Assembly: GCA_050253415.1 (NCBI GenBank)
Contig: JBFWJC010000007.1
Location: forward strand, 67,879-131,878
Source: Pedobacter sp.
Lineage (GTDB): Bacteria; Desulfobacterota; Desulfuromonadia; Desulfuromonadales; Syntrophotaleaceae
DNA: 64,000 nucleotides
Reading direction: 5' to 3'
Of this stretch, positions 26,027 to 64,000 are shown one piece after another (position 1 is the stretch's first letter; every line of letters begins with the position of its first letter). The notes below the pieces were generated by a model, which saw nothing but the letters and a program-made list of their open reading frames with translations, had not been told where the DNA came from and ran no database searches. A program made the position numbers and the translations under genes.

Positions 26027-28171
26027 ATGGACGCATATTTTAACGGTGAAGAATTAGCCGGGCTACCCGGCATGCCTAAGACCGCCAGGAGTGTCCATCG
26101 CAAGGCAGCCAGTGAAAGTTGGCAGAGTCAGGAAGTGGCTGCCAAGGGTGGGCGAACAGGTACCAGGCGGGAATATCACATCAACAGCCTGCCGCCTGAG
26201 ACCCGCAAGGCGTTGGCAAAGTCACACCCTGCTGCCATGCACGACCCCGCAGGTACCGAGACCGGCCAGAAGCTGGCCCTGAGCGCCAAAACCAAAAAAC
26301 AGGCACAGCGCAAGCAGGCCGAGGACGCCTTACAGTGCGCAGCGCATCTGCCCGAGCGCGAACGCCAACGCAATGCCGATCGCTCGGCCATATTGGCCGA
26401 CTGGAAGCAATACCGCCGGGTCTCCGGAGAATCGGTCAACCCTTCGCTTGCCTCGTATTCCAAATTGTATAACGCCGGGCAGCGCGAAGGTATGGAGACG
26501 ATCCGGCAGCGGATCCGCAAAGTTTCCATGCGCACCCTGTTGCGCTGGCGCAGCGACGTCAAAGAGCGCGGGCACCTGGGCGCACATTACGGCCAAAACA
26601 AGGGCGGCAACAAGATCGACAGCCAGCCGGAGTTGAGAGATTTTGTGGTGGCGATGCTGACGGCCTATCCGCACTGCAAGGCCAGCCAGGTGATCCAGTC
26701 TCTGGATGCTCGGTTTGCCGATCGCGATGACCTTGATCTGCCGAGTCAGGGACGGCTTGGCAAATGGATGAATGTCTGGAAGGAAAAAAACGCCCAGCTG
26801 TTCAGCGCCATGAGTAACCCTGACCAATGGAAGAACGGCTTCATGACGGCGTTTGGCAGCTCCTCGGAGAACGTCGCGGTATTGAATCAGCTTTGGGAAT
26901 TCGACGGCACCCCGGCGGACATCATGTTTACCGACGGCAGGCATTCGATCTGCGGCGTAATCGACGTGTACAGCCGCCGCCCCAAGATGCTGGTCACACC
27001 TACGGCACGAGCCACGGCGGTGGCCGCCCTGCTGCGCCGCGCGCTGCTCGACTGGGGCCTGCCTGCCGATCCCTGGCGACTGACCGCCAAAACCGACAAC
27101 GGCTCTGATTACAAGTGCCATCACATGGCGCGGGTGTTTGAGCTGCTGGATATCGACCAGGTTCTCTGCCCGCCCTTCTCCCCCTGGCACAAGCCGCACA
27201 TCGAGCGTTTTTTTCGCAGTTTCTCCCACGACCTTGTGGAGCTTTTGCCTGGATTTATCGGGCACAACGTCGCCGATCGCAAGGGTATCGAGGCACGCAA
27301 GGCTTTTTCGGAGCGACTGTTTAAAAAAGACCAAGTCATCGAGGTCAACATGCGCGCCGAGGAATTCCAAAAGTTTTGCGATGAGTGGGTGACCAACATT
27401 TACATGCACCGGCCTCACGATGGCCTTAACGGCAAGACGCCCTACCAGATGGTGAACGAATGGCGCGAACCGGTGGAGCGCATCCGCAACGAACGGGCAC
27501 TGGATCTGTTGTTGTCGGAAGCCCCCGGCAAGGGGCTGCGCACGGTCAGCAAAAAGGGCATCCGCCTGGATCACGGTTTGTTTATCGCGCCGGAGCTGTG
27601 GGCGGTGGTCGGACAAGAGGTGCGGGTGCTGGAAGTGGCCGACGATCTCGGGAGGATCATGGTGTACGGCGGCGAGCAACTCAACGAATTTGTGTGCGTG
27701 GCGGAATGTCCGGAGCGTACCGGCATCGACCGCGCCGAGGTAGCCGCCAAGGCCAAGGAGATCCAGAAAAAAGCCGTACAGGAAGCCAAGGCCGAACTCA
27801 AGGCCAAGGCCAAAAAGCTTGGTGTGGACGATATCGTCACCGAGATCCGCGCAGCGGCAGCGACCCAGGCCGGCAAGCTCACCGCCCTTCCGCGCCCCTC
27901 GCGCGATTACACCAGCGCAGGATTGGACGCTGCAGCCGAGGCCGCATGCAGCCTGGACAACATTGCGACACGCCAGAAGATCACGGCCGATATCTCGACA
28001 CCGGAGGCATCTTACGCCCGGTGGAAAAAACTGGAAGCACGGCACGCCGCAGGCGAGACGCTGTATGCGGAAGACGCGGCGTTTTTCAAGGGGTTTGCCA
28101 TGAGTGCGGACTGGAGAGCCATGCAGAAGATGGAAGAGGATTTCGGGCCGTTTTACCTGGCCCATTCATGA
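26027..28171 (+). CDS. MuA-like DDE transposase
   Basis: N-terminal Mu-type HTH (ELAGLPGMP...REYHINSLP). Catalytic motifs WEFDGTPAD, TDNGSDY, KPHIERFF. Confidence 0.95.
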   Translation: MDAYFNGEELAGLPGMPKTARSVHRKAASESWQSQEVAAKGGRTGTRREYHINSLPPETRKALAKSHPAAMHDPAGTETGQKLALSAKTKKQAQRKQAEDALQCAAHLPERERQRNADRSAILADWKQYRRVSGESVNPSLASYSKLYNAGQREGMETIRQRIRKVSMRTLLRWRSDVKERGHLGAHYGQNKGGNKIDSQPELRDFVVAMLTAYPHCKASQVIQSLDARFADRDDLDLPSQGRLGKWMNVWKEKNAQLFSAMSNPDQWKNGFMTAFGSSSENVAVLNQLWEFDGTPADIMFTDGRHSICGVIDVYSRRPKMLVTPTARATAVAALLRRALLDWGLPADPWRLTAKTDNGSDYKCHHMARVFELLDIDQVLCPPFSPWHKPHIERFFRSFSHDLVELLPGFIGHNVADRKGIEARKAFSERLFKKDQVIEVNMRAEEFQKFCDEWVTNIYMHRPHDGLNGKTPYQMVNEWREPVERIRNERALDLLLSEAPGKGLRTVSKKGIRLDHGLFIAPELWAVVGQEVRVLEVADDLGRIMVYGGEQLNEFVCVAECPERTGIDRAEVAAKAKEIQKKAVQEAKAELKAKAKKLGVDDIVTEIRAAAATQAGKLTALPRPSRDYTSAGLDAAAEAACSLDNIATRQKITADISTPEASYARWKKLEARHAAGETLYAEDAAFFKGFAMSADWRAMQKMEEDFGPFYLAHS

Positions 28172-59540: not shown

Positions 59541-59789
59541 ATGAGTTTAAGGGAAATTAAACGGGAGTTGGCGATCGACCAGGCCAACATTATGATCGGT
59601 AGGGTGATCTCCGTATCACAAGGCATTGCCATGGTACGTTTGGCCGATGGCAGGGTGGTCCGTGCCGGTGGTGGAAACAGCTATGGCGCTGGTGATCGGG
59701 TACAGTTACAGACTGACGGCAGCAGCTACACCGTGTCCGGCAGAGCGCCACTGGCGGCTACGGATGGAGAGATTATCGTGCATGTTTAA
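59541..59789 (+). CDS. Small OB-fold-like tail protein
   Basis: G.V.SV..G.A.V.L.DG.V.RA.G...GDRV. Confidence 0.55.
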   Translation: MSLREIKRELAIDQANIMIGRVISVSQGIAMVRLADGRVVRAGGGNSYGAGDRVQLQTDGSSYTVSGRAPLAATDGEIIVHV

Positions 59790-60304
59790 TACTCGATAAA
59801 TTGGAGATCGTCGATATGCCATTCACCGGCATCATCAATCGAAAGATCACAATAAAACCGGGATCGAATCAACGCACCAAAGCTGTTTTGGGAATCAACG
59901 TGTGATCCAATCCGGAATTTTTTATTGGAGAGTTGTTGGGTGAAATCAGGCTGAAGGGGAAATTCAGCTGTTGCTGGGGACTTCAGGCTGGCTTTTACGA
60001 AGTTCTGACTGATGATATAGGCCATCGCGGTTGAAGGGTGGATCTTCTTGTTTTCGGCTGGGCTCCCATCGATGCGGTTCATAGCGGTCGTGGAGTAGAT
60101 CTGGGCCGCGACTATCCCGATAATGCAGATGGCGAGGACGGTTACCCGGTGTTTTTGCCAAAGCCCCTTCTTGGCAGGAGCCGGGACAACTCCAGGGTGG
60201 CTTTCATCGGTAAGTTGTACATTTGGACTTGCATGACAAAAAGGACAATCAGGCATTTTGTCTGAGTGATTCTTGCCACATGCCGAACACTTGATAATAG
60301 CCAT
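59786..60304 (-). CDS. Zinc-ribbon membrane protein (moron)
   Basis: CSACGK..SD....CPFC, TM segment, VK..LKSP.TA.F, VDSQNSFGA.IR. RBS AGGAGG. Confidence 0.75.
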   Translation of the reverse strand: MAIIKCSACGKNHSDKMPDCPFCHASPNVQLTDESHPGVVPAPAKKGLWQKHRVTVLAICIIGIVAAQIYSTTAMNRIDGSPAENKKIHPSTAMAYIISQNFVKASLKSPATAEFPLQPDFTQQLSNKKFRIGSHVDSQNSFGALIRSRFYCDLSIDDAGEWHIDDLQFIEY

Positions 60305-60360
60305 ATACGCCTCCTACTAGAGTCGTTTTGCTACTGAATCGAAGTTGGAAAAAGAAAACA

Positions 60361-60510
60361 GGGGAGCGACAAATCGACGCTGGAACGTCGATCCGCCCCC
60401 ACCACACAGTGCTGAGGACTGTGAGCCAGGCAAGGCTCCCCCACCGCGACGTCACGGCTGCAGGAGCCTACCATAAATTAACAAACACCCACAAGGGTAA
60501 ACGGAGGCTC
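60361..60510 (+). ncRNA. Structured 5' leader of the methyltransferase gene
   Basis: Hairpins ATCGACG/CGTCGAT, CACAGT/ACTGTG and GAGCC/GGCTC. Alternative pairings reach the RBS. Confidence 0.6.
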
Positions 60511-61323
60511 ATGATGTCCAGTAAACCAATTATTCCCTGGATCGGCGGCAAGCGGAAACTTGCCGATCATATTCTGCCAATTTTTCCGAACCATAAGTGC
60601 TATGTCGAGCCGTTCTGCGGAGCGGCGGCATTGTTCTTTCTCAAACAGCCATCAGAGGTCGAGGTCATCAACGATGTACACGGTGACCTGGTCAACTTGT
60701 ATAGGGTTGTAAAGCATCATTTAGAGGAGCTTTACAAACAATTCAAATGGGCCTTAACCAGTCGCCAGAATTGGGAGTGGCTGCAAGTAACACCGCCCCA
60801 AACCCTGACCGACGTGCAGCGCGCGGCGCGCTTTCTATATCTGCAAAAGCTCGCCTTTGGCGGCAAGGTTGATGGGCAATCCTTCGGCACCGCCACCACC
60901 AGCCGGCCAAGGTTTAATATATTCACCCTGGAGCAGGATCTGGCGGACGCCCATTTCAGGCTGGCCAATACCACCATCGAGCACCTGGACTGGCAAGAGG
61001 TGATCCTCAAATATGACAGGCCGCATACACTCTTCTATTGCGATCCACCCTACTGGCAAACCGAAGGCTACGGCGTGACGTTCGGATGGGAGCAATACGA
61101 AGCGATGGCCAATCTGGCCAGCACAATAAAAGGCCAAATGATCATCTCCATCAACGATCACCCGGATATTAGGGGGCTGTTCAAGGATCTGCCAGTTGTC
61201 GAAGTTGATTACCAATACACGGTCGGCGGCGGAGCAAAACAGAGCGATTGCGTCGAGCTGATCTACGGCACGTGGCCAGGTGGGATACCAAAGTCAAAAG
61301 GGGTGCAGGAATCCTTGTTTTAA
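60511..61323 (+). CDS. D12-class N6-adenine DNA methyltransferase (Dam-like)
   Basis: PW.GGKR.LA, YVEPFCG, EVIND, YCDPPY, ISINDHP. RBS GGAGG. Confidence 0.93.
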   Translation: MMSSKPIIPWIGGKRKLADHILPIFPNHKCYVEPFCGAAALFFLKQPSEVEVINDVHGDLVNLYRVVKHHLEELYKQFKWALTSRQNWEWLQVTPPQTLTDVQRAARFLYLQKLAFGGKVDGQSFGTATTSRPRFNIFTLEQDLADAHFRLANTTIEHLDWQEVILKYDRPHTLFYCDPPYWQTEGYGVTFGWEQYEAMANLASTIKGQMIISINDHPDIRGLFKDLPVVEVDYQYTVGGGAKQSDCVELIYGTWPGGIPKSKGVQESLF

Positions 61324-61854: not shown

Positions 61855-61886
61855 AAAAGGGGCTAGGTCTACCGACCTAACCCCTT
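61855..61886 (-). terminator. tRNA terminator hairpin
   Basis: AAAAGGGGCTAGGTC-TACC-GACCTAACCCCTT. Confidence 0.7.
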
Positions 61887-61894
61887 GAATTTAA

Positions 61895-61969
61895 TGGTGG
61901 GCGTTGTAGGGATTGAACCTACGACCCCTGCCGTGTGAAGGCAGTGCTCTCCCGCTGAGCTAAACGCCC
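61895..61969 (-). tRNA. tRNA-Val (anticodon CAC)
   Basis: GGGCGTTTAGCTCAGCGGGAGAGCACTGCCTTCACACGGCAGGGGTCGTAGGTTCAATCCCTACAACGCCCACCA folds as a cloverleaf. Confidence 0.97.
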
Positions 61970-63873: not shown

Positions 63874-64000
63874 TTGTCACTTGTCACTTGTCACTTGTCA
63901 CTTGTCACTTGTCACTTGTCACTTGTCACTTGTCACTTGTCACTTGTCACTTGTCACTTGTCACTTGTCACTTGTCACTTGTCACTTGTCACTTGTCACT
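63874..64000. repeat. Heptamer tandem repeat (TTGTCAC)n, at least 18 units, truncated by the window edge
   Basis: Perfect array, preceded by GTGATTGGTGATTAG. Confidence 0.95.

Follow-up and report, generated by a model that had tools for sequence, protein, structure and literature searches.

Results and Discussion

Organization of the Methylase Locus

The window analyzed here is a stretch of 64,000 nucleotides (nt) of contig JBFWJC010000007.1 (Pedobacter sp., assembly GCA_050253415.1), part of which is filled by a Mu-like prophage as judged from its domain content. The transposase gene (26027-28171) codes for a protein with Mu DNA-binding, rve and Mu C-terminal domains, and the other Mu-like prophage genes in the window encode an AAA+ partner, a Mu portal fused to Mu F, a Mu gp27, a capsid E protein and a tape measure protein. 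Near the right end of the prophage lies the gene of a D12-class (Dam-family) DNA adenine methyltransferase, hereafter the methylase, for which the closest solved structures were DpnM and E. coli Dam (E 1e-12 to 1e-15). The subject of this work is the DNA segment 60346-60513, which leads up to the start codon of this gene and would be transcribed into the leader of the methylase messenger RNA (mRNA); its minus strand may encode a second RNA.

The modification enzyme at this locus is a D12 adenine methylase and not Mom, and the lack of com stated in an initial annotation was borne out. Only chance open reading frames (ORFs), unconserved, were found on the plus strand of 60305-60510, with no com gene directly upstream of the methylase, and a search for the Com family PF10122 gave nothing above the cut-off in the whole 4.1-Mb genome, the single weak match (19.5 bits vs a cut-off of 22.9) being on a different contig. 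A 43-residue frame at 60345-60476 was considered as a leader peptide and dropped, since it crosses covarying stems and indels.

Plus-Strand Fold of the Leader

The initial annotation had described the leader as a Com-independent switch made of four complementary blocks, in which pairing of 1:2 plus 3:4 would hide the ribosome-binding site (RBS) of the methylase and pairing of 2:3 would free it. The four blocks are present, GAGCC at 60423-27, AGGCTCC at 60433-39, GGAGCCT at 60463-69 and AGGCTC at 60505-10, with GGAGG at 60503-07 and ATG at 60511 and 60514, and so are the two hairpins noted upstream of them, H1 (60361-60400) and H2 (60405-09 with 60419-23). The plus-strand RNA 60361-60530 folded at −63.0 kcal/mol, as compared with −46.2 ± 4.2 kcal/mol in 200 dinucleotide shuffles (z −4.04; 0/200 as good). 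In the minimum-energy fold block 2:block 3 is nested inside block 1:block 4, and the Shine-Dalgarno sequence (SD) and AUG lie in a long-range helix. This helix, P1, pairs CUGUGAGCC (60419-27) with GGCUCAUG (60506-13), and the nested helix, P2, pairs AGGCUCC (60433-39) with GGAGCCU (60463-69). In a partition-function model the cost of opening the start region was 9.6 kcal/mol in the window, with a mean of 7.15 kcal/mol over 94 sequences of the family described below, and on this thermodynamic ground P1 would lower methylase translation. Inspection by eye for a pseudoknot of the H1 loop with the AGCCAA junction revealed no consistent complementarity, and a plus-strand promoter inside the element was discarded, since TAnCAY ends in C, T or G and offers no credible −10.

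Distribution of the Element

Relatives were found by a methylase protein search, which yielded 80 genome loci and 80 viral-contig loci. A covariance model of the leader, R1, was built from 7 sequences, and a second one, R2, describes the minus strand. RNAalifold on the raw MAFFT alignment (A1) gave 14 pairs only, with the variable stems misaligned, and covariance-model alignments were used instead.

The upstream regions of the relatives share an element of ~155 nt, larger than that of the initial annotation (60346-60513 in the window). Its order is a purine-rich block, the long hairpin H1, AACC, H2 (CACAG/CUGUG), block 1, AGCCAA, block 2, the palindromic hairpin H3, block 3, CUAnCA, a variable spacer, and block 4 abutting a start codon, which is that of the methylase or that of a com-like zinc-finger ORF preceding it. 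R1 matched the window once (130.3 bits), this being also its one match in the whole genome; two weak partial minus-strand matches besides were set aside. Among the related loci R1 matched 76 of 99 plus 41 of 61, that is 117 of 160. In a protein-independent search (DNA pattern, viral contigs, 80 loci) 13 loci matched R1, 12 of which have the methylase family downstream, the 13th being cut by a contig end. A crude DNA pattern of the Com knuckle occurred in 56 of 161 upstream regions, in 20 of them with the element core within 260 nt. The idea that the element is an alternative to com does not hold in the com-bearing relatives, where the same element precedes com.

All ten named phage loci (B3, UMP151, VP882, phiE125, KP12, Aval, TJ1, Bise, KS9 and PhiKM) carry the element, and according to the records Mu-like phages, Stanholtvirus and Hapunavirus are among them. 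Judged from these loci, the element moves together with the methylase among Mu-like, lambda-like and P2/N15-like phages. By record titles it accompanies the methylase family in Beta-, Gamma- and Deltaproteobacteria, and an enterobacterial form together with the start of the methylase gene was found in 534 of 5,426 complete E. coli genomes. The methylase of phage B3 is 62.9% identical to that of the window, and the B3 element lies upstream of com (R1 28.5 bits, R2 37.2 bits).

Three cases may be mentioned. In phage B3 (locus L161, 1082-1307) the tiny annotated ORFs B3ORF45 and B3ORF46 are situated at the element (R1 1213-1360, R2 1200-1310), B3ORF46 inside it and B3ORF45 abutting it; both are probably not genes. 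Locus L188 (843-928) holds a decayed copy, which stops within H3 and is fused to methylase codon 45 by a deletion. In Methylophaga thiooxydans DMS010 an identical com-methylase locus with the element is found on at least 12 scaffolds (L037-L047, L056), either a multicopy transposable prophage or a duplicated assembly.

In the R1 alignments, 89.1% and 88.4% of the cells were paired vs 70.5% and 67.9% in shuffles (0/500 reach these values), and the covariation was 0.471 and 0.495 vs 0.155 and 0.167 (0/500 each). Slid controls on the same alignments had at most 42% of cells paired and a covariation of at most 0.083. The leader was confirmed as a conserved RNA element and not a product of chance.

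Pairing of the Blocks

The individual block pairings were scored in alignment A3. Pairing 1:4 (helix P1, four core and two extension pairs) was formed in 92.5% of the cells vs 81.6% in shuffles, with a covariation of 0.398 vs 0.198, and neither value was reached in 500 shuffles. The two pairings that were thought to hide the RBS scored no better than block conservation alone gives: 1:2 was paired in 82.7% vs 81.9% of the cells (77/500; covariation 0.139 vs 0.135) and 3:4 in 81.8% vs 81.8% (292/500; covariation 0.155 vs 0.154). Pairing 2:3 (P2) was supported by covariation.

Among the 94 distinct sequences, the P1 core is complete (4/4 pairs) in 72 and the extension has 3 or more pairs in 73, both being true of 67. 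The core occurs in 8 forms, AGCC:GGCU in 38 sequences, AACC:GGUU in 20 and AGUC:GGCU in 7, the rarer ones including AAUC:GAUU, AGAC:GUCU, GGUC:GACC and AUUU:AAAU, and the extension changes on both sides from GUG:CAC to GCA:UGC or GUA:UAC. Whether methylase or com comes first, the 3′ strand of P1 is always found right at the start codon of that gene. Blocks 2 and 3 remain unchanged when blocks 1 and 4 covary.

The covariation of P1, in which blocks 2 and 3 take no part, supports a sequestered start region but not the wiring first proposed for it. What stands of the initial annotation is thus an RNA structure that can hide the methylase RBS and start codon without com and is conserved with compensatory changes; comparison among homologues upheld 1:4 and 2:3 and gave nothing for 1:2 and 3:4. 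Nor would pairing 2:3 free the RBS, since block 1 still shuts the start region with 2:3 formed. Because the start region remained shut at about 7 kcal/mol in each state of the thermodynamic model, a two-state switch did not emerge. In favor of such a switch, the blocks are real, the RNAfold minimum-energy fold is 1:2 plus 3:4 with H2 in some homologues (L085, L002, L034 and L033), and 3:4 closes the start region in the model once the 5′ half of the leader is blocked. The initial interpretation is partly supported, and its central proposal, a 1:2 plus 3:4 against 2:3 switch timing methylation without Com, we regard as very improbable.

Structural Signatures of the Opposite Strand

The initial annotation overlooked that the opposite strand gives the better reading for most of the conserved structure. 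An A.C mismatch on one strand is a G.U pair on the other. In the plus reading 35 G.U vs 125 A.C cells were counted in H1 (a 3.6-fold excess of A.C), 4 vs 45 in H3 (11-fold) and 6 vs 73 in P0, the helix of the purine-rich block a0 with block 2 (12-fold); the P1 extension had the reverse bias, with 29 G.U vs 5 A.C cells. Read in this way, H1, H3 and P0 are made to fold on the minus strand, and P1 on the plus strand.

Folding energies were calculated for both strands. The minus strand gave the more stable fold of the whole element in 93 of 94 sequences (mean −65.6 vs −51.6 kcal/mol), and the more stable P0 duplex in 88 of 93, whereas P1 was better on the plus strand in 48 sequences and on the minus strand in 30, with 15 ties. 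In the window the minus strand of 60345-60460 reached −54.3 kcal/mol (z −3.71; 0/200 shuffles as good), as compared with −38.3 kcal/mol for the same 116 nt on the plus strand (z −1.57; 15/200). P0 covaried on an alignment that had not been fitted to it, with 42 cells changed on both sides vs 14.4 in shuffles (0/500), and its cells were paired to 76.3% on the plus reading vs 97.8% on the minus reading. Its compensatory kinds are GGGAGC:GCUCCC, GAAAGC:GCUUUC, GGAAGC:GCUUCC, CAGAGC:GCUCUG, GGCAGC:GCUGCC and GUAAGC:GCUUAC. In H1, 14 of 14 pairs had changes on both sides, and the H2 stem varies among relatives as CACGG/CCGUG, CACGU/ACGUG, CACUG/CAGUG, UGCAG/CUGCA and GCCAC/GUGGC.

The minus-strand model R2 matched the window at 104.5 bits, on the minus strand only. 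It was run on 144 of the 160 related loci, 16 duplicate copies being omitted, and matched 81 of 100 plus 42 of 56 sources, in every case on the minus strand. In the R2 alignment 94.4% of the cells were paired vs 69.5% in shuffles, with a covariation of 0.726 vs 0.242 (0/500); by helix, with minus-strand helices marked by a prime, the values were 98.7% (H3′), 97.8% (P0′), 90.3% (H2′ with its extension) and 94.0% (H1′), and at several positions G.U occurred more often than any other pair. These alignments show the two sets of helices together with their opposite-strand signatures.

H3 is, tip included, a spacerless palindrome of at least 6 nt in 84 of the 94 distinct members, in 46 kinds, and of at least 10 nt in 50. 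Its center changes by symmetric double substitutions, as in GACGTC, GTCGAC and GAGCTC. A hairpin loop has no need of such a palindrome; formation of RNA homodimers or a role at the DNA level is possible.

A Putative Antisense RNA

On comparative evidence, the minus strand appears to encode a small structured cis-antisense RNA (sRNA). It would consist of the 5′ hairpin H3′, a three-way junction closed by P0′ with H2′ and H1′ as arms, and a U-rich tail. At least 5 of the 8 bases directly after P0′/H1′ on the minus strand are T in 63 of 93 distinct members, vs 5% of 4647 background windows, and no such T-rich tail follows H1 on the plus strand (0/93). Just upstream of H3′, which begins 7-8 nt further downstream, lies the conserved motif TGnTAnnnT, read as an extended −10 element. 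Among the 94 distinct members T at −15 was found in 74, G at −14 in 78, T at −12 in 85, A at −11 in 90 and T at −7 in 84, and position −13 is free (A35 G26 C25 T8). The best −35-like score was slightly raised, with a mean of 3.02 of 6 vs 2.49 ± 0.10 in shuffles. The E. coli version of the element has a promoter-like TTTTCA-16-TACAAT on the minus strand between blocks 4 and 3, called by a two-hexamer scan. A minus-strand promoter within the methylase codons was also considered by eye and rejected: the Ile-Ile codons are not conserved as DNA, and such a promoter would be absent from the com loci. With its 5′ end near 60459 and the SD at 60503, the proposed sRNA does not overlap the RBS.

These observations suggest, with moderate confidence on our side, that one DNA segment (60346-60513) gives rise to two overlapping structured RNAs which jointly silence the phage DNA adenine methylase; we infer the promoter, the terminator and the negative sign of the regulation. 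The methylase mRNA leader would fold back, with P1 holding the SD tail and AUG at a cost of ~7-10 kcal/mol to open. The sRNA would initiate at the internal extended −10 promoter (TGGTAGGCT, 60473 to 60465), terminate at H1′ plus the U-run at about 60348, and be complementary to the 5′ half of the leader, stopping short of the RBS. In the lysogen, rare read-through transcripts would be folded shut and captured by the antisense RNA, and the duplex of leader and sRNA presumably cut by RNase III, while in the model the task of keeping the start region closed would pass from block 1 to block 3. Late transcripts alone would be abundant enough to outnumber the antisense pool, and their translation would still be weak, which would suit an enzyme required in small amounts; the leader would be locked twice over, and the size of the antisense pool would set the threshold. 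The coordinates are collected in Table 1.

Table 1. Features of the methylase gene and of the element upstream of it (positions in the window).
Feature	Position	Strand	Remarks
Proposed cis-antisense sRNA, ~110 nt	60346..60459	−	both ends predicted
U-rich tail (CUGUUUUCUUUUUCC on the minus strand)	60346..60360	−	proposed intrinsic terminator run
Purine block a0 of P0 (AGGGGAGC on +)	60360..60367	both	partner block 2; compensatory changes
H1/H1′ long hairpin	60361..60400	both	six-base loop CNNNAA on +; putative terminator hairpin on the minus reading
H2 hairpin, CACAG with CUGUG	60405..60423	both	extended by G.U pairs on the minus strand
P1 5′ strand, CUGUG + AGCC, includes block 1 (CUGUGAGCC)	60419..60427	+	fold, covariation
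Block 2 (AGGCUCCCCC)	60433..60442	both	with block 3 (P2) on + RNA; with a0 (P0′) on minus RNA
H3 hairpin, CCGCGACGTCACGG	60444..60457	both	tip a spacerless palindrome (GACGTC)
Block 3 (GGAGCCU), P2 3′ strand	60463..60469	+	
Extended −10-like element TGGTAGGCT	60465..60473	−	proposed sRNA promoter; conserved TGnTAnnnT
A/C-rich spacer	60474..60502	+	length and sequence variable; 13 to 39 nt between blocks 3 and 4 in relatives
Start region	60503..60513	+	SD GGAGG 60503-07; block 4 GGCU 60506-09 plus CAUG = P1 3′ strand; ATG 60511
D12-class (Dam-family) DNA adenine methyltransferase, 270 amino acids	60511..61323	+	PF02086 E 7.1e-33; phrog_56 E 1.6e-93

Several observations weigh against joint silencing by two RNAs. 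Alignments A3, A4 and A6 were fitted to the structures and then scored, and the sequences are related, so that the shuffle counts overstate independence. The strand signature is not carried by every helix: the P1 core is strand-neutral (G.U/A.C 11 vs 10 cells), and P2 has no clear bias (75 G.U vs 55 A.C), its duplex energies favoring the minus strand in 52 sequences and the plus strand in 30. The plus strand is rich in C and A, which alone favors minus folding, even if the shuffle z-scores still differ. The U-tail falls below 5/8 in 30 of 93 members, and the proposed terminator, a G+C-rich hairpin with a U-rich tail, received no call from a simple terminator scan of the window. The two-hexamer scan made no call inside the window element either; the −10 hexamer, TAGGCT, departs strongly from the consensus and shares positions with block 3, which means that its conservation may reflect RNA pairing, and the enterobacterial subfamily (the E. 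coli version) has C at −12. Two wastewater runs that shared 4% of the sampled sequence words yielded only metagenome contigs with related methylase genes, which speak neither for nor against a transcript. Finally, an sRNA that leaves the RBS uncovered would be unusual for a repressor.

Alternative Readings

The leader might act on the gene strand only, as a cis-regulatory structure opened by a ligand, a protein or folding kinetics, with no antisense RNA and with a minus bias due to composition or to tolerated A+.C pairs. The plus leader does fold well, all helices can form on the plus strand, H2 and the P1 extension share one strand and both covary in a switch-like way, and the unpaired stretches AGCCAA and CUAnCA are conserved. 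Conserved junction bases, as looked for in a riboswitch, exist, yet most of the structure bears the minus-strand signature: the excess of A.C over G.U in H1, H3 and P0 is reversed in the P1 extension of the same sequences, P0 is far better paired on the minus reading, the same 116 nt fold differently relative to shuffles on the two strands, and the U-run and TGnTAnnnT are without an obvious role on the plus strand. A leader acting by itself is for these reasons unlikely, if still worth keeping in view. Far less probable is an element at the DNA level, be it a cruciform or a set of inverted repeats bound by a protein, such as the operator of a late activator like Mu C or Mor. The spacerless palindrome of H3 with its symmetric double substitutions, of no use to an RNA loop, would suit it, and the Mu mom promoter is controlled through DNA sites. 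The stems of H1, H2, H3 and P0, however, differ freely among close relatives with pairing kept, loop spacing varies, a strand-specific G.U/A.C asymmetry makes no sense for double-stranded DNA, and the cassette is also present in phages that are not Mu-like.

The main rival of joint silencing keeps the same two RNAs and reverses the sign: the sRNA would pair with the inhibitory 5′ half, RNase III perhaps removing this half, and free the start region, comparably to the way in which DsrA opens the rpoS leader. In its favor, the complementarity of the sRNA, as delimited, extends to the anti-start strand (CUGUGAGCC) but not the RBS, and the sRNA holds a copy of the start-region sequence (GGCUCACAG) that would compete with the start region for block 1; moreover, the promoter-like site of E. 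coli lies further upstream on the minus strand, and an sRNA made from there would cover block 3 and leave block 4 unpartnered. On the other side, blocking the sRNA-covered part of the leader in the model left the mean opening cost at 7.12 vs 7.15 kcal/mol unblocked (n = 94; lower in 53 sequences, higher in 41), because block 3, freed from block 2, pairs with block 4. To our knowledge, the cis-antisense RNAs described in phages, plasmids and transposons are repressors almost without exception. Since the opening cost is unchanged on blocking the 5′ half, negative control is favored, and activation by the sRNA is rather unlikely. Somewhat more doubtful again is an elaborated form of it, in which the same 170 base pairs would be a fold-back lock on one strand and an sRNA key on the other; sRNA pairing and RNase III would strip the keeper strands and release a pulse of methylase whose size would depend on the sRNA in store, and this factor-independent timer could be acquired by any phage along with the methylase. 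The H2′ arm copies the locked helix, pairing GGCUCACAG with CUGUGGGUU in the sRNA vs GGCUCACAG with CUGUGAGCC in the mRNA, and if such a timer existed, the always-palindromic H3 would permit RNA homodimers. As to joint silencing, a self-contained mechanism of this kind is more plausible than a phage-specific factor because the cassette moves between unrelated phages.

Comparison with Known Systems

In the Mu com-mom system the mom start region is held in an RNA hairpin, and antisense RNA is not known to be part of the scheme. It exemplifies translational control of a DNA-modification gene whose mistimed expression is harmful, as set out in the sections of PMC3299994 drawn on here. Like com-mom, the present locus has a modification gene at the same place in a Mu-like prophage and a start region in an RNA helix. 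Unlike it, the gene is a D12 adenine methylase and not mom, there is no com, and the helix is long-range, with strands ~80 nt apart; where com exists, the element precedes it and would form an extra layer, not a replacement. In IS10, fold-back of read-through transcripts is combined with RNA-OUT, a stable structured antisense RNA from an internal outward-facing promoter. The fold-back hiding the start region and the small structured antisense RNA proposed here resemble RNA-OUT/RNA-IN, but RNA-OUT covers the RBS of its target, whereas the proposed sRNA would stop ~45 nt short, and a plus-strand promoter owned by the element, downstream of the fold-back strand, was not found here, unlike in IS10. 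In hok/sok, the fbi/tac fold-back and the antisense RNA Sok silence a toxin gene; the likeness would lie in the silencing of a harmful product by two means, long-range pairing within the mRNA and a cis-antisense RNA against its leader. At the present locus neither a leader ORF like mok nor any indication of 3′ processing as an activating step is seen, and the gene codes for a DNA methylase instead of a membrane toxin. In more general terms, a long-range helix between an upstream strand and the SD/AUG, with compensatory change, is shared with fold-back inhibition (IS10 fbi, hok fbi, the MS2 maturation gene), and conserved structure on the strand opposite the target gene is shared with cis-antisense systems (RNA-OUT, Sok, ctRNAs).

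A candidate structured RNA upstream of D12-class methylase genes was reportedly described by Weinberg et al. in 2017 under the name of D12-methyl motif. Searched on both strands against Rfam 15, the window leader had no family match even at E = 10, and nothing was found at E = 1 on nine other members or at E = 0.1 on twelve methylase loci lacking the element. The D12-methyl motif, to which the initial annotation had pointed, would be a different RNA if Rfam 15 includes it. The string "D12" does not occur in the main text of their paper (PMC5737381). Sub-threshold minus-strand matches over H1′ were seen with ctRNA_pGA1 in locus L022 (2838-2913; 29.5 bits, E 0.051, gathering 45) and with SymR in locus L037 (2708-2771; 28.4 bits, E 0.18, gathering 61); both families are cis-antisense RNAs, and the matches probably reflect only a likeness of shape, a hairpin and a U tail.

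Cassettes of com and an adenine methylase are known from Mu-like phages, among them B3 ORF47/ORF48 and Hia5/Hin1523/Nma1821 (PMC3299994). They share gene family and position with the locus studied here, and the account of B3-type cassettes in those sections of PMC3299994 is one of proteins and possible Com sites, not of an RNA element. In searches of the literature on Mu-like com/mom leaders, antisense RNA of prophage methyltransferases, small RNAs of VP882 and the D12-methyl motif, no description of the element was found, the B3 genome paper and the supplement of PMC5737381, which may bear on this, lying outside that scope. By this comparison the element seems to be new and unannotated, and it would combine known devices, namely fold-back inhibition and a cis-antisense RNA.

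Neighboring Features

To the left of the element lies a divergent gene (59786-60304, minus strand) for a protein of 172 amino acids with an N-terminal CxxC...CxxC knuckle and a hydrophobic stretch, which matches phrog_13160 (function unknown, E 3.4e-19) and no Pfam family. Its start is ~40 nt past the proposed sRNA terminator, on the same strand. Downstream of the methylase follow a small membrane-like ORF, a terminator-like hairpin and a transfer RNA (tRNA) gene. The hairpin, of 13 pairs (61857-61886, minus strand), adjoins tRNA-Val(CAC) (61895-61969, minus strand) just past the last prophage ORF; the prophage end must be at most ~100 nt from tRNA-Val. At 63874-64000 the heptamer TTGTCAC is repeated in tandem without a mismatch (18.1 copies, 100% matches); the array runs off the end of the window and translates as an open frame of repeated VTCHLSL.

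Conclusions

According to the sections of PMC3299994 used here, methylases of this kind shield the DNA of the phage against restriction, and certain relatives that occupy the mom position show little sequence preference in methylating adenine. Silencing of the methylase in lysogens would bear on the conflict between phage and host and on host epigenomes. The element is common yet unannotated, also in the studied phages B3, VP882, phiE125 and KS9, and its presence there and in the E. coli genomes counted above makes it easy to test in the laboratory. It is a clear case of opposite-strand structural signatures within one DNA segment, with one helix set against three, and such mixed signatures are a warning to motif finders that assign a single strand; small ORFs annotated at the element, B3 ORF45 and ORF46 for example, are doubtful. 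If the fold-back leader and the antisense RNA do silence the methylase jointly, the unit would need no phage-specific factor, which would fit its transfer with the methylase between unrelated phages.

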